A stretch of 64,000 nucleotides of DNA from Candidatus Uhrbacteria bacterium (GCA_016844925.1 JAERTI010000020.1:97-64096); one strand, 5' to 3'; numbered from the stretch's first letter, positions 5,781-13,959 are shown. Program-made: numbers and translations. The notes: generated by a model not told the origin, from the sequence alone.

Positions 5781-6509
5781 CTACTCGCTGAACCAGCGCT
5801 CGATGCGTTCGAGCGAAGGTTGGACGCGGTGGAAGCTCTCGCTGGCGATCAGACTGTGATCACCTGCGACACGAACGACCTTCACGCGCTCGTCGGGGTA
5901 GGTGGCGTGGGCGACGAAGAAGTCCTTCTCCGGCACGATGGCCATCACCTCGCAGGGCAGCGGAGGCATCCACAGGCGCAGCGGAGGCATGGAGATCTGC
6001 CTCACGGCGCCACAGGGCTCCGGGTGCAGTGCGCGCTTGATCTGCTCACGCAGCGTGGCACGGCGATCGGGGTTGGTGCCACCCAGGAGCATGGCATCGA
6101 TCTGTTCGTCGGTGTCCAGCTCCAGGTCCTTGCCCAGCAGCACGCGCCACAGAGGGGCGAAGGCGATCATCAGGCCATGGATGAGCACGGCGATGCGGAT
6201 GCCACGCCGTTCCATGCCACCGAAGAGGGCGACCTTCTTGAAGAGCCCCGGTTGCTTGGCCGCAACGCCGCGAATGACCTGCGCCCCCATGCTGAACCCG
6301 ATGGCATAGCAGCCGTTGGGAAGCAGGGAGAGGTCGATGTGGGCGTTGTTGACGTAGCCCTTCAGGCTCGTGCCCTTGTAGTGAAGGATCACCACATTCC
6401 AGTCGGAGAAGAAGGCGATCACGTGGCGGAACCACCAGCGGACGTACTTCTTGTTCTTGTTTCCCCAGGCGCCGGGGAACAGCACTACGGTGCGCTTGGC
6501 GTCTCCCAT
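5781..6509 (-). CDS. Alpha/beta hydrolase, paralog of 13039..13959; GC-rich
   Basis: GxSxG elbow YAIGFSMG matches YAIGFSYGG in the 13039 ORF. RBS TTAAGGAGG lies before the ATG at 6509. Confidence 0.55.
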   Translation of the reverse strand: MGDAKRTVVLFPGAWGNKNKKYVRWWFRHVIAFFSDWNVVILHYKGTSLKGYVNNAHIDLSLLPNGCYAIGFSMGAQVIRGVAAKQPGLFKKVALFGGMERRGIRIAVLIHGLMIAFAPLWRVLLGKDLELDTDEQIDAMLLGGTNPDRRATLREQIKRALHPEPCGAVRQISMPPLRLWMPPLPCEVMAIVPEKDFFVAHATYPDERVKVVRVAGDHSLIASESFHRVQPSLERIERWFSE

Positions 6510-6541
6510 CAGGGCCTCCTTAAGGTGAGGGGTGACTGGGG

Positions 6542-6570
6542 AGATTAGGAGAGCCGTGGGGTTTTGTCAA
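6542..6570 (-). promoter_or_regulatory. Sigma70-like promoter for the hydrolase at 5781..6509 (TTGACA, 17 nt, TAATCT)
   Basis: Plus-strand tgtcaa at 6565-6570 and agatta at 6542-6547. Shares the 14-mer ATTGACAAAACCCC with 277-290. Confidence 0.45.
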
Positions 6571-6598
6571 TAAAAAGGACCCAACGTGTTGTCGGGTC
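6571..6598 (-). terminator. Intrinsic terminator after island gene 1
   Basis: GC-rich hairpin (GACCCGACAACACGTTGGGTCC on the minus strand) followed by TTTTTA. Confidence 0.4.
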
Positions 6599-6609
6599 AG
6601 TGTTCACGG

Positions 6610-8019
6610 CTACTGCTCGTGAATGATTCGACTGATGCGCGCCATGACCTTGTGGGCCAACGGGAAGCGGTGTTCATCTGGAATCTTGACGTGGTATCGA
6701 CCGCCCTGAGCACGGACGAGTCTTTTGCTCACCATGTCCTGGAGTGTCGCTGCGAAGACTCGTCGTGGAGAGGAGACGTCAGGAAGGAACTGGCGACACA
6801 TGCGCCACAGGCGGTTTTCGTTGAGGTGAGGACTCGCAGCGAAGGTTATGAGCCTGTTTCCTTCACGAAGAAACCCGCAGAGCAGGATGGCCCGCGCGAA
6901 GGGGATGTTCAGGTCAGGGAACAGGTCCTCGAGTTCCAGCTTCTCCATCAGTTGCGGGAAGTCGGTGGCCCCGGTGGCCTGTTCGCGTTTCCTGTAGTTT
7001 GGGTGGTGACGCTTCAGACCGGTGAACTTCGTTCGTTCGGTTTTTGGTTCCGGGAGTGAGAGACGTTGTCTCTCAAGAGTGTGTCGCCGCTGCTCTTCAT
7101 GGAGCATCTTCCAGGCATCGTAATCGTCTTTTGTTCCGCCCAGGGCGAAGAAGTCGACCAGGGACAGGTCGTTTTTGAACGGCTCCCACGCGTTACACAC
7201 CGCAACAAGCTGGTCGAATGTGTCCATTCTGTAGACGATGGATGCGTCCGAGCAGATGGCCTTGAGGTGACGCGCGTTGAGGTATCCGTTGACGATGTAT
7301 CGAAGCAGGTTATCAACCACCTGGATGTCGGTAGCGTCTGCGAGCTGAGCGATGCGGCCGCAGCTTACCCGTCTGCGGTTCGCCTCTTTGATCATCATCC
7401 ACAACTTTGGGATGCCGACTTTCACACCGTGAGGTGAGGTGTATGCCGCGTATGGTGTGGGGACGTTCCAGCTTTGAAAAAGCTTCGTGACCAGCTGCAG
7501 CTGTGCACTGTTTCCCAGAGGGGTGCCAATGCTTGGCTGCTCATGCCCCGGTCTCCAACCGTAGAGTTCGGCCATGAACCTGAACATGTGTCCGCAGCGT
7601 TTCCATATAGGCATCTTCATCAGGTGCCTGATTGCTGGAACGGCTTCGCCCCAGTTCAGCATGGCTGTTGCCGCCTGGACGAATTCCAGGGTTTCGACCC
7701 ATGAGAGCTGACCGAACCCCCAGTGCTCCATGATGGCGAGTGTGTTGAGAGCGTGGTCAGCTCGTCCTCCACACGCGTCGACCAGTGCCCCGAGGAATTG
7801 TTCGGTATTGGGCAGGCACACAGCGCCCACGCCGGTGGAGAGAGTGATGATCCTTTCCAGTGCCTGATGAGCCTCCTTTCTTAGGCTCGGCTTCATGTTG
7901 GATTGTTCCACGAAACTTCTGGTCACGGCGACGACAGTCTCCGCTGGCAGTGAGGTTTCGTAGAAGTACGGACTCAGGTCAAGGCGCGGTGCCTCGACCG
8001 GTGATTCGGTGGTCGACAT
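6610..8019 (-). CDS. Island paralog 1 of an unrecognised four-member family (C-terminal winged-helix-like module, KRHH motif)
   Basis: Likely start is the ATG at 8019 (MSTTESP); the ORF track extends to 8085 through the leader hairpin. Central motif ALGGTKDDYDAWKML, basic motif GLKRHHPNY, C-terminus LQDMVSKRLVRAQGGRYHVKI. Shares its C-terminal architecture with 8141, 9760 and 11400. Confidence 0.6.
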   Translation of the reverse strand: MSTTESPVEAPRLDLSPYFYETSLPAETVVAVTRSFVEQSNMKPSLRKEAHQALERIITLSTGVGAVCLPNTEQFLGALVDACGGRADHALNTLAIMEHWGFGQLSWVETLEFVQAATAMLNWGEAVPAIRHLMKMPIWKRCGHMFRFMAELYGWRPGHEQPSIGTPLGNSAQLQLVTKLFQSWNVPTPYAAYTSPHGVKVGIPKLWMMIKEANRRRVSCGRIAQLADATDIQVVDNLLRYIVNGYLNARHLKAICSDASIVYRMDTFDQLVAVCNAWEPFKNDLSLVDFFALGGTKDDYDAWKMLHEEQRRHTLERQRLSLPEPKTERTKFTGLKRHHPNYRKREQATGATDFPQLMEKLELEDLFPDLNIPFARAILLCGFLREGNRLITFAASPHLNENRLWRMCRQFLPDVSSPRRVFAATLQDMVSKRLVRAQGGRYHVKIPDEHRFPLAHKVMARISRIIHEQ

Positions 8020-8020
8020 A

Positions 8021-8101
8021 GTGTCGATCCTTTCTCTTCGCCGCACGCCCCGGAAGGGGGGCGAAGGTATCGACACTAGCGGCATGAAGGATTCATGTCA
8101 A
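8021..8101 (-). promoter_or_regulatory. Type-B 5' region of paralog 1: TTGACA, 17 nt, TAGTGT promoter overlapping a conserved leader hairpin that contains the SD
   Basis: Plus-strand tgtcaa at 8096-8101 and acacta at 8073-8078. Inverted repeat GTGTCGAT(8021-8028)...ATCGACAC(8069-8076) with inner stem CTTCGCC/GGCGAAG. The 3' arm carries AAAGGA and ends 2 nt before the ATG. It is nearly identical to 11286..11356. Confidence 0.5.
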
Positions 8102-8102
8102 T

Positions 8103-8134
8103 AAAAAAACCCCGACGTTGTGGCCGGGAAGGGG
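8103..8134 (-). terminator. Intrinsic terminator after paralog 2
   Basis: GC-rich hairpin CCCCTTCCCGGCCACAACGTCGGGG followed by T7 on the minus strand. Confidence 0.45.
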
Positions 8135-8140
8135 CGTCTC

Positions 8141-9571
8141 TCACGAGGCGTGCGTTGCCGTGATGAGCGTTTCTATGTGGGTAATCTGCTGCCGGGCTTG
8201 GGTGTAGCGACCAGAGGGCTTCTTGAGCCTCAGGCGCTTCCCCTCACGTGTGAGCAGGTGCTCTGTCTCGAGCTGGCCGAGGAACTTCTTGAGCTCCCGT
8301 CGGCTTCCAAAGACAGTTCTGCACTGTTTCCAGAGCTTCTTCTCGTCCCGTCCTTCACAGTCGGTGAGCGACCGTGGGAGACGATCTCCGTGTCGGAGGA
8401 ATCCCTCAACGATGATGTGTCGGAGCCGGTCTTCACCCAGCGCTGCAAACGTCGACGTGACGTTCAGCTTGCGCCGCAGGGCGTCGAAGTCGATCTGCTT
8501 GGGCTTGGGAGGCCTGTAGCTGTGGTGGTGACGCTTGTTGCCCGTTGCCTGAGGGGTGGGTTCCTCCGACAAACGCGTGCATGGCTGGGGTGATGGCTTT
8601 GAGGCCATTGAACGCTCCAGCTCTTCTTGCTCAAGCAGCTGCAGGAATTCCCAGTCATCCGCGGTTCCGCCAGCCTCGTGGAAAGCGGACCAGTCTTTGG
8701 GGCGACCAGCATTGTGCCACTCACTGAGAAAGTCTGGGAACGCTTCGGGGCCAATTTTCTCGAGCAAGTCCTTTTCGCCAAGGGTCCGTCTCAGGACCTT
8801 GTCTTCACGTAGGTGACTAGGGGTAGATTCAGCGATCGCCATGATCTCCAGAAACGTCGTGTCCTGCAACAGGCGGACGATCTGGTCCAGCGAGTAGTCA
8901 CGTGTCAGCAGGTGTAGTTGCTTCCATACGAGAAAGAGAGGGGCATTCACTCCCGAGTTCTTGTAGGTCAGCTCCAAGTCCTCAAGGGCTTGGTCGCCAA
9001 GCTCCTGTGCGTAGTCTTCGATCTGCTGCCTCGCTCCCATGGCGATCTTGAGCGTGGCGATGAACAGCGAAACGCTTGCGATCGGTTTTGGGTGCTGAGG
9101 GTACGTCGCGAGACGAGCACGCTCCTGATCTGAGGAGAAGTTGGCCAACTGGTGCGCCACCTGAACGAGTTCAAAGGCACGAAGTGAGGCCTCGGGCATC
9201 TTTTCAAGGACGCGCTCATTGGTTGTGCTGAGGTAATCCGGAGAGAGCTTGACCCATAGGCCGAGATCGCAGAATTCTCTGTAGAGCCGTACGTACATCT
9301 TTGGGTGGCTGTAGGTGAATCCGTACAGCGCAACACCTCCAATGACTTCGAGCATCCTCGTAAGCCTGAGCTCGGTCTTGTCGAGGTCTTCGAGCACGGC
9401 GTTGAGTGTTGTCAGGTACCCGTAGCGGCCAATGGGGCCACGTCGCTTGACCATCCGCTCGAGCATGGCTCTGGCCGCCTTGGCGATTTCACCTTGCAGC
9501 TTGAGTGTGTCCATGTAGGCCCGGATGGTTCCGGGGACGTGTTCGAAGTCTTTATAGTGCTCCAGTTCCAT
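8141..9571 (-). CDS. Island paralog 2 (same unrecognised family)
   Basis: Motifs SEWHNAGRPKDWSAFHEAGGTADDW and GNKRHHHSYRPPKPK, C-terminus LGQLETEHLLTREGKRLRLKK. The start is uncertain: ATG at 9571 (MELEHYK) or TTG at 9601. No strong SD at either. Confidence 0.55.
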   Translation of the reverse strand: MELEHYKDFEHVPGTIRAYMDTLKLQGEIAKAARAMLERMVKRRGPIGRYGYLTTLNAVLEDLDKTELRLTRMLEVIGGVALYGFTYSHPKMYVRLYREFCDLGLWVKLSPDYLSTTNERVLEKMPEASLRAFELVQVAHQLANFSSDQERARLATYPQHPKPIASVSLFIATLKIAMGARQQIEDYAQELGDQALEDLELTYKNSGVNAPLFLVWKQLHLLTRDYSLDQIVRLLQDTTFLEIMAIAESTPSHLREDKVLRRTLGEKDLLEKIGPEAFPDFLSEWHNAGRPKDWSAFHEAGGTADDWEFLQLLEQEELERSMASKPSPQPCTRLSEEPTPQATGNKRHHHSYRPPKPKQIDFDALRRKLNVTSTFAALGEDRLRHIIVEGFLRHGDRLPRSLTDCEGRDEKKLWKQCRTVFGSRRELKKFLGQLETEHLLTREGKRLRLKKPSGRYTQARQQITHIETLITATHAS

Positions 9572-9695
9572 CAGGTAGAAACCTTGGGAGCCTTTACGCA
9601 AACCACGCTCTGCGGGGTTGGCTACGTGCAGGTGCTTAACGTACTTGAGTTTCCGACCCAGAGGGGCCTCCTTTACTCCTGGGTAGGAGAGAATG

Positions 9696-9724
9696 AGAAT
9701 AGGGCCTTAGGGGGTTATCGTCAA
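9696..9724 (-). promoter_or_regulatory. Type-A promoter for paralog 2 (TTGACG, 17 nt, TATTCT)
   Basis: Plus-strand cgtcaa at 9719-9724 and agaata at 9696-9701. Homologous to the module at 12976..13040. Confidence 0.5.
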
Positions 9725-9730
9725 GGGAAT

Positions 9731-9761
9731 GAAAAAGAAAAAAGAGACTCCGGAGAGTCTC
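9731..9761 (-). terminator. Intrinsic terminator after paralog 3; it overlaps the stop codon
   Basis: Perfect hairpin GAGACTC-TCCG-GAGTCTC at 9744-9761, followed on the minus strand by TTTTTTCTTTTTC. Confidence 0.55.
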
Positions 9762-11277
9762 AAGTTGCGTACTTCGCCATCAGGCCACGGAGCTGCGTGA
9801 GGAGCTGGTGAGCCTTGGGAAAGCGTGTATTTGGGAGTGCTAGGGAGTAGTTGCCGCGCTTGAAGGTGACTAGATGTGCCTCCAGGAGTGGCCGGAGTTC
9901 TCGAGTGAACTGCTTACGACTACTTGCTTCAACGTGTCCCTTCACCTGTCTCCAGAGCTTCTTGCCATCTCTGGAAGGAAGCTTTGTCCAGTCGGTTGTG
10001 AGGCGGTCACCGTCACGGAGCAAGCCGTACACGAGTACGACTCGCGTCAGTGCTTCGTCCAGATCAGGAAAGTGCGCATGGACGTTGAGCTCGGAGCAGA
10101 GGGCCCCGAAGTCTACGTCTGTGGACTTTTCTGCTGGGATGAAGTTCGCGTGATGCCGTTTTCGACCGGTGGGGGTCTGGTTTGGTCGGACAGGGGTCGC
10201 TAGTCCTCCTGTGGGCTTTGTGGTTGAGGAGGGTTTTTGCACAGACCGTTGTTGGTCAAGGTGCCTCTCCCAGTCCTGCGCCCGCCCGCCCGCTTCCCAG
10301 AATTCCATGAGGTCACATGGCTTTTCGGCCTTTTCCCATTCTGCGAGCAGTGAACGCATGATCTGGTCGTCCCAGTAAGCGTCTACCAGAAAGCCGGGCT
10401 CGCGGAAGCAAAAGATCAAGGCATCGGGGGTGAGGATCTCGCGTTCAATGAGGGAGAGGGTCATGAAGCAGAACTCAGCTGAGTGCTCTTTCAGCATCTT
10501 GTGAGTAAGACGCTGGGAGAACCCTCTTTGTTTCGCAAGAGCGAAGCGTTCCCAGAGGCGAGTTGTTGTGACCACTTCTTGGTCAAACTTGATCTTCAGG
10601 TCAGGTCCCAACGTTACGTCGAGAGAGGTGATGAGCCTAATGGCCGACAAGAGTGCTTCAAAATCTTGTGGCTCAGGTAGGTTGTGCGGCTCTCTTGTCC
10701 ATCCTTCCTCTTCCGTGTAGTTGCACAGAAGGGCAGAGCTAGCAAGAAGTGCGACGGATTTCGGGTTGAAGTCCGCATCTCCTATATCGAATGCATCAGG
10801 GTGCGCTAAGGCAATTTGATACATACGTTTTGCAAAAGCCGCGAGCTCATGAGAGCTTTTGAATCTCAGGTCCGCCATCGACAGCTTGTGAACGACGCTG
10901 GCGACGATGTTGGGAGTTTCTCCTAAGCAGTCTGTGAGCCGGTCGATCAAGCTGTTGACCGTTCCAAGGAAGCCGTGCTGGTTTTCCGGGCCGTCACCAA
11001 GAGTCATTCTGGTGAAGGCATCGACGACCACCTTCTTCTTGTCTTCAGGGAGCTCAGCATCGCGGAGCCAGTTACGCCACGTTGGAGCGACGAACCGTGG
11101 GTCGAAACCGCAGGATTTCCAGCGTTTGTCTTTCGGCTCCATGTAAATGGTTACGCCTCTAGACAGTCGTTCCTTGCCAAGGATTTCAGCAAGTTCTTCG
11201 GAGGAAGAGATCTTGAGAGAACGGATGTGTGAGAAGCGTTTTTTTGAGTAACGCCGCTTTTTCTGCTTGGTGGGCAT
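9760..11277 (-). CDS. Island paralog 3 (same unrecognised family)
   Basis: Likely start is the ATG at 11277 (MPTKQKK); the ORF track extends to 11331 through the leader element. Motifs MEFWEAGGRAQDWERHL and TGRKRHHANF, C-terminus LRPLLEAHLVTFKRGNYSLAL. Confidence 0.6.
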   Translation of the reverse strand: MPTKQKKRRYSKKRFSHIRSLKISSSEELAEILGKERLSRGVTIYMEPKDKRWKSCGFDPRFVAPTWRNWLRDAELPEDKKKVVVDAFTRMTLGDGPENQHGFLGTVNSLIDRLTDCLGETPNIVASVVHKLSMADLRFKSSHELAAFAKRMYQIALAHPDAFDIGDADFNPKSVALLASSALLCNYTEEEGWTREPHNLPEPQDFEALLSAIRLITSLDVTLGPDLKIKFDQEVVTTTRLWERFALAKQRGFSQRLTHKMLKEHSAEFCFMTLSLIEREILTPDALIFCFREPGFLVDAYWDDQIMRSLLAEWEKAEKPCDLMEFWEAGGRAQDWERHLDQQRSVQKPSSTTKPTGGLATPVRPNQTPTGRKRHHANFIPAEKSTDVDFGALCSELNVHAHFPDLDEALTRVVLVYGLLRDGDRLTTDWTKLPSRDGKKLWRQVKGHVEASSRKQFTRELRPLLEAHLVTFKRGNYSLALPNTRFPKAHQLLTQLRGLMAKYAT

Positions 11278-11285
11278 GTAAGGAG

Positions 11286-11356
11286 CCTTTCTCTTCGCCA
11301 GCTTCCCGGAGGGAGGCGAAGGTATCGACACTATCGAGCTCCTTGATTCATGTCAA
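11286..11356 (-). promoter_or_regulatory. Type-B 5' region of paralog 3: TTGACA, 17 nt, TAGTGT promoter plus a conserved leader element
   Basis: Plus-strand tgtcaa at 11351-11356 and acacta at 11328-11333. Leader arms GTGTCGATACCTTCGCC (5') and GGCGAAGAGAAAGG (3') are identical to those of paralog 1. Confidence 0.5.
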
Positions 11357-11382
11357 CAAAAAACTCCGACGCATGGTCGGAG
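11357..11382 (-). terminator. Intrinsic terminator after paralog 4
   Basis: Hairpin CTCCGAC-CATGC-GTCGGAG followed by TTTTTTG on the minus strand. Confidence 0.5.
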
Positions 11383-11399
11383 GAGGGAGTCTGGAGGAC

Positions 11400-12947
11400 T
11401 CAGGTATTTGCACAGAGCTTCGTAAGCGCTGTACGCACGTTGAGTGCTCCGTGCGTTGAGTGAGAGTTCGTAGCGATTTGGTACTTACCACCACTCTGCC
11501 GGACGAGTCGGATGGACTCGAGCTGGCGCAACGCGCTGTTGATGTCACGGTCCTGGACCCTACCCAGCTGCCTGACTCGGCTGCGGAGCTTACTGGCCTT
11601 GATCTGCGGCCAGCGGGCCGGCTGCATGAGACGGTCGCCAGAGCGCATGAGGGTCAGCAGGATGGCTGAGACAAGATCTGCATCGTGGTCCGGGAGGTGC
11701 TTGAGCACAATCTCGCGGACCAAGTTGCGGAGCCTGTCCCAATCGGTCTGCGGCTTCTCCTTCGGTGGCTCGAAGTTTCGATGCCGGCGCTTGTTTCCGG
11801 TGGATCGCTGGGGCTTGGGAGGCTTGGCTGCCTGCACCCGAGGGATCCGCGCCCGTTCTCGTCGTCGAGCCTCAAGGAGCCGTCTCTTCTCGGCTTGCGA
11901 GCTCAGGTGCGCTTGCCAGCTCACGCTGGTGCCTCCCTGGCGCAGAAACGCACGGAAGTCATCAGGTCGTCCGGCTTCACTCCAGTGCTCCAGCAGGGCA
12001 ACGACCTCGGTAGGGACGTCCATCTTGATCTCACGCGCGTGGCGCGCAAGGGTTCGGACCTGCTCCTGGTCGAGTGCACCGGTGCTGTACTGGGCGATGA
12101 CATAGAGAACGACCTTCATGGTGCTGTGTTGCACCAGGGAACGGACATCTGTCACGGCGAACCCGTGGTCCGTCAGGATGGTCAGCAGGGACCAGATGCG
12201 TCCAAGGGAAACGGTGTCTGCACCGGCTTCATCGGACAGCGTGTCGTCGGGGCTGAGCACGCGCTCGTCCTGGATGAGAAGATGCACGGCCAAGACGATC
12301 AGTTCAGGGTCGTGCGCCGACAGTACCACCGGAAGGTCTTCTACACCACATGCCCGCAGGTGCTTGATGATGTGGACTAACGCTGTGGTGATGACTTCTG
12401 TGGCATTGATGTCGATCCTGGATTCAGGAATCTCGTTGCGAAGCTGTAGTGGCTTGATGGCCTTGCGGAGCCCTGTGTAGAGACGCTCGTAGTCACCATA
12501 GTGTTCGTACAAGTAGCCGGTACGTTCCATGGCAGCCAGCGAGGTCATCCCCAGTGTGGGGTGCCCGCGGAAGAGTTTGGTAAAGCGCTGGATGAGCCGG
12601 TCGCACCGCCCAAGGAGGGTGGTGCCAGGATGACCCTTCCTGGCAAGGCGCAGCAAGGCGTTGACGCCAAACGTCCTGTACCCAGGGTTGAATTGAGTCA
12701 AATCCGTGAGGAAGTTCCTGATGATCCCGCCCACACAGTTCGGGTGGTTGTAGAGCTTGCGGATCGTCTCACTCGGAGGGAGGACAACAAGCCTTCGCAT
12801 CTCCTTACGAAATTCTTCGTCGGGATCGTCGATCTCACGAGCATCCTTCTCCCAGAAGGTGGGGGTCTCGCTCATGGTCACGAGCTCAGGAATGTCCTGG
12901 ACATCGATGCTCAAGTGCACCAACTTCAGACGGCCAACCTTGGCCAT
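11400..12947 (-). CDS. Island paralog 4 (same unrecognised family)
   Basis: Likely start is the ATG at 12947 (MAKVGRLKL) with SD AAGGAG. Motifs LEHWSEAGRPDDFRAFLRQGGTSVSW and TGNKRRHRNFEPPKEK, C-terminus LRQLESIRLVRQSGGKYQIA. Confidence 0.6.
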   Translation of the reverse strand: MAKVGRLKLVHLSIDVQDIPELVTMSETPTFWEKDAREIDDPDEEFRKEMRRLVVLPPSETIRKLYNHPNCVGGIIRNFLTDLTQFNPGYRTFGVNALLRLARKGHPGTTLLGRCDRLIQRFTKLFRGHPTLGMTSLAAMERTGYLYEHYGDYERLYTGLRKAIKPLQLRNEIPESRIDINATEVITTALVHIIKHLRACGVEDLPVVLSAHDPELIVLAVHLLIQDERVLSPDDTLSDEAGADTVSLGRIWSLLTILTDHGFAVTDVRSLVQHSTMKVVLYVIAQYSTGALDQEQVRTLARHAREIKMDVPTEVVALLEHWSEAGRPDDFRAFLRQGGTSVSWQAHLSSQAEKRRLLEARRRERARIPRVQAAKPPKPQRSTGNKRRHRNFEPPKEKPQTDWDRLRNLVREIVLKHLPDHDADLVSAILLTLMRSGDRLMQPARWPQIKASKLRSRVRQLGRVQDRDINSALRQLESIRLVRQSGGKYQIATNSHSTHGALNVRTALTKLCANT

Positions 12948-12975
12948 GATTGCTCCTTGGAAAGGGCAGATGATG

Positions 12976-13004
12976 AGGTTAGCGACGATATGGAGGCGCG
13001 TCAA
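12976..13004 (-). promoter_or_regulatory. Type-A promoter for paralog 4 (TTGACG, 17 nt, TAACCT)
   Basis: Plus-strand cgtcaa at 12999-13004 and aggtta at 12976-12981. The surrounding roughly 45 bp are homologous to 9696..9761. Confidence 0.45.
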
Positions 13005-13010
13005 GGGAGT

Positions 13011-13040
13011 AGGAAAAGAAAAAGAGAGACGGAGTCTCTC
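13011..13040 (-). terminator. Intrinsic terminator after the hydrolase at 13039..13959
   Basis: Hairpin GAGAGAC-TCC-GTCTCTC at 13024-13040 followed by TTTTTCTTTTCC on the minus strand. Confidence 0.5.
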
Positions 13041-13959
13041 AGGGGGTGGAGGATTTGTCTTTGAGGCTGCGGCGGATGCGCAGGCCCAGGACGATCCAGA
13101 CCAGGGGGTTCATGGTGGCCTTGTGGCCGATCTGGGGGAGGGTATGGCTCCACCAGGTGGGGAGCGTGGGCTGCCAGCGCCACAGAGACAGAACGATAAG
13201 AGCCGGCCAAATGACATAGCGCTGCCATCTGGAAGGAACGACCGAATCTGCTGGGCGCGGAGGGCGCGTGTCGCTCTTGTGGGCGACAAGGTCTACGAAC
13301 GAGGCGTTGTGATGAACGAAGACACCGTGGGCTTCGAGGTGCTCGATGGCGCGGTGTGTCTGTGGGAGGTTCTCCGAGTCTGGTTCCATCTCACGTGCCC
13401 CACTGGCCTTGATCACTCGCGCGAGCGCGGAGCCGCGCAGGGGAGTGTTCACGGTGTAGAGCGTGCGGATGTCTCGATCCGGATAGGCCTTGACCAGGTC
13501 CACCAGCTGCCAGATCAAATCGAACCCGCCGTAGCTGAAGCCGATGGCGTACAGCGGACGTTGTCCGGTGTGCTTGCGGAACCACTCACGGTTGAGCGAG
13601 ACGATTTCCGAAGACGGGACAACGTTGCCCGCAAGCGGGGTCTGGATGAACAGGATCCGGTAGCCGAATACTTTGTTCAGGAATACGCCCATGGGCCAGA
13701 CGGTGTAGGGGGTCGTATTGAGACCCACCGCGATGGCGACGTCTGCACGAGCACTCTCGTGATTGAGGATGTAAGGGAAGTGTCCCAGTCGCCACTTTGC
13801 ATACGTACAGATCACCGCCTCCAGCAGGAGGACGGGCAGGTGGGTGATGACGAGTACCGGACCACGGATGGGTCCGAGGATTTCGAATCCTTCGCGCACA
13901 CGGCGCTTCCACTCGCTGAGGAAGGACGTGCCTTCCACATCGATCGAATCTTCTTTCAT
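13039..13959 (-). CDS. Alpha/beta hydrolase with a C-terminal hydrophobic/TM segment; paralog of 5781..6509
   Basis: YAIGFSYGG nucleophile elbow. Likely start is the ATG at 13959 (MKEDSIDV) with SD GGAGGGG. The C-terminal segment is W-rich and hydrophobic. Confidence 0.55.
   Translation of the reverse strand: MKEDSIDVEGTSFLSEWKRRVREGFEILGPIRGPVLVITHLPVLLLEAVICTYAKWRLGHFPYILNHESARADVAIAVGLNTTPYTVWPMGVFLNKVFGYRILFIQTPLAGNVVPSSEIVSLNREWFRKHTGQRPLYAIGFSYGGFDLIWQLVDLVKAYPDRDIRTLYTVNTPLRGSALARVIKASGAREMEPDSENLPQTHRAIEHLEAHGVFVHHNASFVDLVAHKSDTRPPRPADSVVPSRWQRYVIWPALIVLSLWRWQPTLPTWWSHTLPQIGHKATMNPLVWIVLGLRIRRSLKDKSSTP

Follow-up and report, generated by a model that had tools for sequence, protein, structure and literature searches.

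The minus strand of region 6610-13004 in the 64-kb stretch of DNA analyzed here (referred to as the window) carries four tandem genes of ~470 to 515 aa each, designated P1 to P4 (Table 1). Their products share ~21% mutual protein identity, matched no Pfam family, and gave no sequence match in the PDB. The murA gene adjoining the array is 66 to 76% identical to murA of Candidatus Uhrbacteria MAGs (candidate phyla radiation, Patescibacteria). When 1.84 billion representative proteins were searched exhaustively with a profile, only 42 family members were recovered, none of them annotated, including the window's own P3 (P0002) and P4 (P0003); a word-index protein search matched P0001 and P0002 only and missed even sequences of its own query alignment. 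All 42 representatives apparently came from Uhrbacteria-like contigs, and the family appears to be restricted to Candidatus Uhrbacteria. Relatives were taken from the exhaustive search and from contig look-ups, which provided DNA for twelve related loci, two of them (L096 and L097) syntenic with the window. Protein-guided scans of genome and metagenome collections found no P1 orthologue, and tblastn of P3 against phage genomes found no match. In the AlphaFold model of P3, the N-terminal part is helical, a charged linker carries a TGNKRHHxNY motif, and the C terminus resembles a MarR-type winged helix.

The intergenic cassettes of the array (8020-8140, 9662-9760, 11278-11400, and 12948-13040) alternate in an A-B-A-B pattern. 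The P4-to-P3 cassette resembles the P2-to-P1 cassette, and the hydrolase-to-P4 cassette resembles the P3-to-P2 cassette, with ~75 to 80% identity within each type; for P2-to-P1 versus P4-to-P3 this identity extends over the whole length, and in both types the terminators are included. The proteins flanking these cassettes share only 21 to 29% identity. Taken together, the alternation and the homology suggest that a two-gene unit was duplicated and that its proteins then diverged quickly. In the closest relative (L001; ENA ERZ27265259 k141_418974), a P4 orthologue is followed directly by a P2 orthologue, and P3 is absent. Relative to window positions 8141-13100, identity is 72% for P4, 91% for P2, and 98% for the neighboring hydrolase; both the genes present and their rates of evolution vary widely in the array.

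Table 1. Features of the P1-P4 array, in window coordinates, and arms of the related leaders
Feature	Position	Strand	Sequence or remark
P1 CDS	6610..8019	-	ATG 8019-8017 taken as true start; 469 aa
P1-only second hairpin	8011..8030	-	GG.AUCGACA-CUA-UGUCGACC; predicted to pair last SD GG and start-codon UG with codons 1-3
P1-only outer 3' segment	8021..8028	-	ATCGACAC; complements promoter segment GTGTCGAT, alternatively first codons
P1 SD	8029..8035	-	AGAAAGG; 9 nt before ATG; unpaired in fold of promoter-derived transcript
P1 inner stem, 3' arm	8036..8042	-	GGCGAAG
P1 loop	8043..8059	-	17 nt; apical mini-stem CCCC (8056-8059) / GGGG (8048-8051)
P1 inner stem, 5' arm	8060..8066	-	CUUCGCC; ~+1 of predicted transcript
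P1 outer 5' arm	8069-8076	-	GTGTCGAT; pairs with 8021-8028; overlaps -10
P1 -10	8073..8078	-	TAGTGT; placed by spacing rule; overlapped by outer 5' arm
P1 -35	8096..8101	-	TTGACA; 17-nt spacing to TAGTGT
P2 intrinsic terminator stem	8110..8129	-	then TTTTTTTATT; T-run 8103-8109 abuts P1 -35
P2 CDS	8141-9661	-	
P3 CDS	9760..11277	-	ATG 11277-11275 taken as true start; 505 aa
P3 SD	11286..11292	-	AGAAAGG; 8 nt before ATG; unpaired
P3 inner stem, 3' arm	11293..11299	-	GGCGAAG
P3 loop	11300..11314	-	15 nt; apical mini-stem UCCC/GGGA
P3 inner stem, 5' arm	11315..11321	-	CUUCGCC
P3 -10	11328..11333	-	TAGTGT; contains GTG 11331
P3 -35	11351..11356	-	TTGACA
P4 intrinsic terminator	11364..11382	-	T-run abuts P3 -35
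P4 CDS	11400-12947	-	
L100/101/102 leader			5' arm CCTTCGCC; loop TAGGAA; 3' arm and SD GGCGATGAGAAAGG
L104 leader			5' arm CCTTCGCC; loop TTGGT; 3' arm and SD GGCGATGAGAAAGG
L098 leader			5' arm CTTCGCC; loop TAAAGTG; 3' arm GGCGAA
L105:2539 leader			5' arm CTTCGCC; loop 15 nt; 3' arm and SD GCGATGAGAAAGG
L105:4142 leader			5' arm CTTCGCC; loop CCCCTTAGGGTGTGC; 3' arm and SD GGTGAAGGGAAAGG; one G-U pair
L096 leader			5' arm CTTCGTC; 3' arm and SD GGCGTAGAGAAAGG
L097 leader			5' arm CTTCAAT; 3' arm and SD GTTGTCGAGAAAGG
L095 leader			5' arm cut down to CUUC; 3' arm GAAG

Promoters and leaders of P1 and P3

Each gene of the array is predicted to be a separate transcription unit, in which TTGAC(A/G) comes immediately after the intrinsic terminator of the gene before. 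To place the promoters, the last TTGACN 5' of a gene was taken, followed by 17 nt to TAnnnT. All 22 family genes, on 12 contigs, carried TTGACN, a spacer of exactly 17 nt, and TAnnnT right after the upstream terminator; within the window, only seven TTGACN-17-TAnnnT sites precede an ORF, five of them in this cluster. Since the 17-nt spacing was common to 22 of 22 genes, TAGTGT (8073-8078 and 11328-11333) was taken as the -10. On this assignment, P1 and P3 would each be driven by a strong sigma-70-type promoter of their own (TTGACA-17-TAGTGT), placed immediately past the terminator of the gene before; the terminators upstream of P1 and of P3 are homologous. This geometry puts the predicted transcription start ~5 to 7 nt past the -10. 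The first base of the inner stem described below lies 7 nt past the -10 in P1 and P3 and 6 to 8 nt past it in nearly all related leaders, and a start at the first purine within the stem (a G, 10 nt after the -10) would leave only 3 bp. At 6541-6600 (minus strand), the start region of the 242-aa gene 3' of P1 has the same layout of terminator, T-run, and TTGACA-17-TAATCT, without a comparable hairpin in the leader; the SD of this gene, AAGGAGG, lies within CCTCACCTTAAGGAGG.

On the minus strand, the P1 leader (8082..8017) reads CCGCTAGTGTCGATACCTTCGCC-CCCCTTCCGGGGCGTGC-GGCGAAGAGAAAGGATCGACACT-ATG, and the P3 leader (11337..11275) reads TCGATAGTGTCGATACCTTCGCC-TCCCTCCGGGAAGCT-GGCGAAGAGAAAGGCTCCTTAC-ATG. 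From the -35 onward, these correspond to TTGACA-N17-TAGTGT-CGATAC-CTTCGCC-CCCCTTCCGGGGCGTGC-GGCGAAG-AGAAAGG-ATCGACACT-ATG in P1 and TTGACA-N17-TAGTGT-CGATAC-CTTCGCC-TCCCTCCGGGAAGCT-GGCGAAG-AGAAAGG-CTCCTTAC-ATG in P3. A preliminary description of this DNA had reported a leader element shared by the two genes, and the element is real: each of its two shared blocks was found exactly twice in 64 kb. With up to 3 mismatches tolerated, the window still contains exactly two copies of the 19-mer TAGTGTCGATACCTTCGCC (none expected from 100 shuffles), and the 14-mer GGCGAAGAGAAAGG occurs only at the P1 and P3 leaders (0.6 expected). The similarity of the two leaders had been understated, however, in that it spans the whole intergenic region, including the terminator and the -35.

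Several features of that description were recovered. Both leaders contain the inner stem CTTCGCC/GGCGAAG, and the mini-hairpin in the P1 loop (CCCC-UUCC-GGGG) has an equivalent in P3 (UCCC-UCC-GGGA); the closing pair of this apical stem is C-G in P1 and U-A in P3, with both sides altered. An inverted-repeat scan found the outer stem GTGTCGAT/ATCGACAC in P1 and not in P3, as had been proposed. Other details required correction. The SD had been placed inside the 3' arm, but AGAAAGG (8029-8035) separates the inner 3' arm from the outer one, which ends 1 nt rather than 2 nt before the AUG. The hairpin had also been said to embed both the -10 and the SD: the P1-only outer arm does overlap the -10, but the conserved inner stem excludes both elements. 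The conserved part is the inner stem, running from ~+1 to one nt before the SD, and the outer stem is not part of it. The SD is complementary to what we take to be the usual extreme 3' tail of 16S rRNA, CCUUUCU; no 16S gene lies within the window.

Folding the predicted 5' untranslated regions, as the preliminary description had suggested, yielded the inner stem in silico with the SD left free: the predicted transcripts fold as a 7-bp stem plus a 4-bp apical stem. Minimum-energy and centroid folds of both P1 and P3 left the SD unpaired, as did the minimum-energy folds of most orthologues. Among 20 gene starts in the window (mean, -6.3 kcal/mol; sd, 4.8), the structure preceding the SD was most stable in P1 (-17.7 kcal/mol) and P3 (-15.5 kcal/mol). 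Thermodynamic support was mixed: the full 68-nt P1 hairpin reached z = -3.7, but for the part downstream of the predicted start z was only -1.1 to -1.9. Relative to dinucleotide shuffles, most leaders folded ~1 sd better, with individual z-scores mostly near -1 and a Stouffer z of -2.9 over sequences that are not independent. Rfam yielded no match, either window-wide at the gathering score or within 6400-13200 at E <= 5. An intrinsic terminator or attenuator was ruled out: the hairpin is followed by AGAGAAAGG with no U-run, and a terminator scan made no coding-strand call there. In P1, the motif TGTCGA is found in direct orientation at the -10 and again at the ATG, and in inverted orientation ahead of the ATG.

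Leaders of related Uhrbacteria genes

The preliminary description had remarked that the arms are constant and the loop variable. This pattern held for P1 and P3 and for eight related leaders on other Uhrbacteria contigs (L095, L096, L097, L098, L100/101/102, L104, and two genes in L105; Table 1). The arms CTTCGCC and GGCGA(A/T)G recurred 5' of P3-like genes with loops of 5 to 17 nt; the arms are spaced by 5 nt in L104, 6 nt in L100, 7 nt in L098, 15 nt in P3, and 17 nt in P1. The related proteins are 30 to 42% identical to P3 (57% for the flanking enzyme). At such a protein distance neutral intergenic DNA would be randomized, which argues that the leader blocks are under selection. All 10 leaders have CTTC, including those in which its pairing partner is broken; L095 keeps 4 bp only, and four orthologues have a U-U mismatch in the stem. 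The outer 3' segment ATCGACAC was absent from P3 and from all eight orthologous leaders. In the L098 leader of P0009 (L098:5947-6003), the hairpin CTTCGCC-TAAAGTG-GGCGAA is kept and the AGAAAGG SD is missing; an ATG follows 5 nt after the stem, and the called start lies another 18 nt on.

Pairing was retained across the ten leaders. In their alignment, 84% of cells were paired, compared to 36 to 61% when the 3' partner was slid by 1 to 3 columns, and RNAalifold independently recovered the core 5 pairs. The stem contains three sense-strand G-U pairs and two double changes, both of which stem from one sequence. Covariation, the other analysis proposed in the preliminary description, was weak: 30 of 500 shuffles scored at least as high, and RNAalifold gave a covariation term of 0.08. 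A candidate compensatory change in L096, from U-A to A-U, was rejected, as the homologous register gives a U-U mismatch and the pairing belongs to a slipped 6-bp alternative stem. From these comparisons, the hairpin is conserved in position and its structure is plausible rather than proven.

A covariance model of the ten leaders found the element only 5' of P3-like genes, with no further copies in 331 kb of Uhrbacteria loci. A dispersed repeat (REP or MITE-like) was rejected as an explanation, given only two copies in the window and, in the 331 kb of Uhrbacteria sequence, copies only before P3-like genes. Exact two-arm pattern scans matched 13 metagenome stretches and 1 viral stretch; these 14 matches were dismissed as chance, falling in unrelated high-GC coding sequence without promoter or SD context. 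The 7-mer CTTCGCC occurs 22 times in the window versus 9.7 expected, mostly away from the leaders, and this excess is most plausibly a codon-usage effect that is uninformative with respect to operators. Other subfamilies carry different stems at the same position: P2 has CUCCU-ACCC-AGGAG before UAAAGGAGG, and L103 has CCGG-N8-CCGG before its SD. In Uhrbacteria loci, strongly promoted genes outside the family commonly bear a hairpin in the -10-to-SD interval as well, several examples being seen, which suggests a generic leader design rather than a gene-specific switch.

Candidate roles of the leader hairpin

The reading that we favor, and to which we assign an even chance, is that the conserved element is a 5'-terminal mRNA stem-loop combined with a strong SD, forming an aprE/ompA-like leader of P3-type genes. 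It draws on the leader sequences, the promoter geometry, the complementarity of the arms across genomes, and the free SD of the predicted folds. Ahead of the 7-bp stem CUUCGCC/GGCGAAG, the RNA would have 0 to 2 free nucleotides at its 5' end, and in the long-loop versions a 3- to 4-bp apical stem would lengthen the hairpin. One nucleotide past the stem would lie the single-stranded SD AGAAAGG, with the AUG 8 to 9 nt further on. Such a hairpin would leave the SD open and work together with the strong ribosome-binding site, while protecting the 5' end against the decay that depends on it (by RppH with RNase E, or by RNase J). The predicted outcome would be high, constitutive expression, as with the Bacillus subtilis aprE and Escherichia coli ompA leaders. 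The start site, the formation of the hairpin in vivo, and its stabilizing effect are inferred.

Stabilizing 5' hairpins are reportedly the subject of Emory 1992 and, for aprE, of Hambraeus 2002. Like the aprE, ompA, and papA stabilizers, the P1 and P3 leaders are short, belong to single-gene units with a strong promoter, and have an accessible strong SD and a hairpin that does not occlude it. In stabilizers of this type the stem-loop should begin within a few nucleotides (~4 or fewer) of the 5' end; from promoter geometry, the P1 and P3 hairpins are predicted to lie 0 to 2 nt from it. In B. subtilis, mRNAs are stabilized by a hairpin at or near the 5' end and by the ribosome-binding site (PMC3997798; for the ompA-type and aprE cases, see references 95 and 109 therein). 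RppH is hindered by a 5' hairpin, and the B. subtilis enzyme requires at least 2 unpaired 5' nucleotides (PMC3997798). Relative to these stabilizers, the hairpin in P1 and P3 abuts the SD with a 1-nt gap. Unlike in known stabilizers, where it is not required, the sequence of the stem is conserved across divergent genes. A purely structural stabilizer should drift in sequence, and the conserved stem sequence hints at another or an additional constraint.

One such constraint could be recognition by protein. The hairpin, or the inverted repeat in the DNA, may be an operator bound by the encoded winged-helix proteins, providing auto- or cross-regulation of the paralogs. Although this is the best placed of the alternatives, we consider it unlikely. 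It is a possible reading built on the conservation of the stem and on the modeled resemblance of a C-terminal domain. Beyond the structure, the sequence of the stem is conserved across proteins that are 20 to 40% identical, including the CTTC common to all leaders, and the element sits directly between promoter and SD. In the P3 AlphaFold model (pLDDT 86), the C-terminal domain (~115 aa) resembles the MarR-family winged helices MexR, SlyA, and RovA with a Foldseek probability of ~0.9; however, the E-values are nonsignificant (0.5 to 2), and the absence of Pfam and PDB sequence matches likewise speaks against the assignment. The stems of the other subfamilies differ, as if the operator coevolved with its protein, but the similar hairpins that precede unrelated genes weigh against such specificity. 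Dimeric operators of the MarR type have a fixed half-site spacing; here the spacing ranges from 5 to 17 nt, which is hard to square with a rigid dimer on DNA.

Operators of both kinds are known: T4 gp43 and ThrRS-thrS exemplify translational operators, and MarR-type proteins exemplify autorepression. The leaders of T4 gene 43 and regA, of thrS, and of ribosomal proteins resemble P1 and P3 in having a small hairpin of conserved sequence directly 5' of the SD, and as in those systems the encoded protein has a predicted fold of a nucleic-acid-binding type. In translational operators, however, specificity usually comes from the loop, whereas the loops are the most variable part of the P1 and P3 hairpins. 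MarR operators share with P1 and P3 an inverted repeat near the -10 and an encoded protein with a winged-helix-like domain. In contrast to MarR operators, the repeat varies in half-site spacing across leaders, lies downstream of the -10, in predicted transcribed sequence, and contains G-U pairs where a DNA palindrome would be mismatched. In its most specific form, with CUUCGCC/GGCGAAG as the operator of an Uhrbacteria-only winged-helix family and with CUCCU/AGGAG and CCGG/CCGG as matched variants in an auto- or cross-regulatory scheme, we hold the proposal to be slightly less probable still.

Selection could also act on the two arms without any role for their pairing. The initially transcribed block and an extended SD block would then be constrained independently, perhaps with a contribution from concerted evolution, and the arms would match by accident, helped by a leader start rich in pyrimidines opposite an SD rich in purines. 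The persistence of CTTC opposite a broken partner fits this proposal, as do the modest folding z-scores, and a variable spacer between two constrained blocks would mimic a variable loop. The ~75 to 80% identity of the intergenic regions indicates that cassette duplication or conversion contributed. Nevertheless, we regard a functionless hairpin as improbable. Perfect 7/7 complementarity including GCC/GGC is not expected by chance (rough estimate over plausible registers, ~1e-3 to 1e-4). The loss of pairing in the slid alignments, the G-U pairs and double changes in the stem, and the longer helix of the long-loop leaders, in which P1 and P3 differ by one compensatory change, all stand against it. 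Between the P1 and P3 cassettes, moreover, the promoter spacer and the loop have diverged but the -35, -10, arms, and SD are unchanged; together with the conservation in other genomes, this favors selection on the blocks over recent wholesale gene conversion.

The preliminary description had favored a switch that sequesters the ribosome-binding site, such as a thermosensor or riboswitch-like element in which the 3' arm hides the SD. As an explanation of the shared element, this now appears quite improbable: the conserved inner stem stops 1 nt short of the SD, which is unpaired in the folds of P1, P3, and most orthologues. P1 does contain a full 16-nt imperfect inverted repeat (TAGTGTCGATACCTTC / GAAAGGATCGACACTA) that would bury the SD (full 68-nt hairpin, -30.9 kcal/mol, z = -3.7) and could form on read-through transcripts from P2. 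A separate P1 hairpin of the SD and AUG with the first codons is also predicted (-8.8 kcal/mol, z = -2.8; 4 of 200 shuffles folded equally well). However, arms that cover the SD are specific to P1, being absent from P3 and from the eight orthologous leaders. The outer 5' arm of P1 consists of -10 hexamer sequence plus 4 nt, so it should be missing from transcripts of the adjacent promoter; a start downstream of this arm, which the promoter geometry predicts, was named in the preliminary description itself as grounds for abandoning the outer stem as an mRNA structure. Like the ROSE and fourU RNA thermometers, P1 and P3 have a hairpin in a short 5' UTR near the SD, and in P1 alone, as in thermometers, alternative pairings can cover the SD and AUG. 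Unlike in ROSE and fourU, the conserved stem of P1 and P3 excludes both SD and AUG, and no Rfam thermometer or riboswitch model (ROSE, fourU, cspA, and others) matched, even at the relaxed threshold.

Translation of the element as an N-terminal extension deserves almost no credence: the extension ORFs are open in both P1 and P3, and a 523-aa version of P3 is deposited (P0002), but the start codons lie in the -35/-10 spacer (ATG 8085, for the 491-aa ORF of P1) and inside the -10 hexamer (GTG 11331, for the public P3 call), they lack a preceding SD, the extension shows no conservation at the protein level, and an in-frame stop follows the -10 hexamer in 6 of 8 orthologous leaders. The N termini of the orthologues align instead from the ATG or GTG behind the SD, and that of P3 from ATG 11277 aligns with P0004, P0005, and P0013. 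In agreement with the preliminary description, which had doubted that the long ORFs (MPLVSIPSPPF... and MSIPSPPSGKL...) represent real protein, the N-terminal extensions, including the deposited P3 call, are judged to be artifacts. The start of P2 is most likely the CTG codon at 9659-9661 (minus strand), with AAAGGAGG 5 nt upstream; the resulting N terminus, LGRKLKYVKHLHV, is conserved in the 91%-identical relative (L001:2028), and the homologue at L103:2829 has TTG there. A mechanical ORF list starts P2 20 codons later, at a TTG.

Candidate-phyla-radiation bacteria cannot be grown alone, and to our knowledge almost nothing is known about their gene-expression signals. This locus corrects start-codon calls in the public record and offers a clean example of strong single-gene units in a candidate-phyla-radiation genome, laid out as terminator, consensus -35, 17-nt spacer, -10, 5' hairpin, and SD. 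As a plain 5' stabilizer the hairpin would be ordinary, a leader element of a known kind that is absent from Rfam and occurs in a poorly studied lineage. If the operator reading were true, the element would represent a new protein-RNA or protein-DNA regulatory module in candidate-phyla-radiation bacteria and would give a first handle on the function of an uncharacterized, rapidly diversifying protein family.
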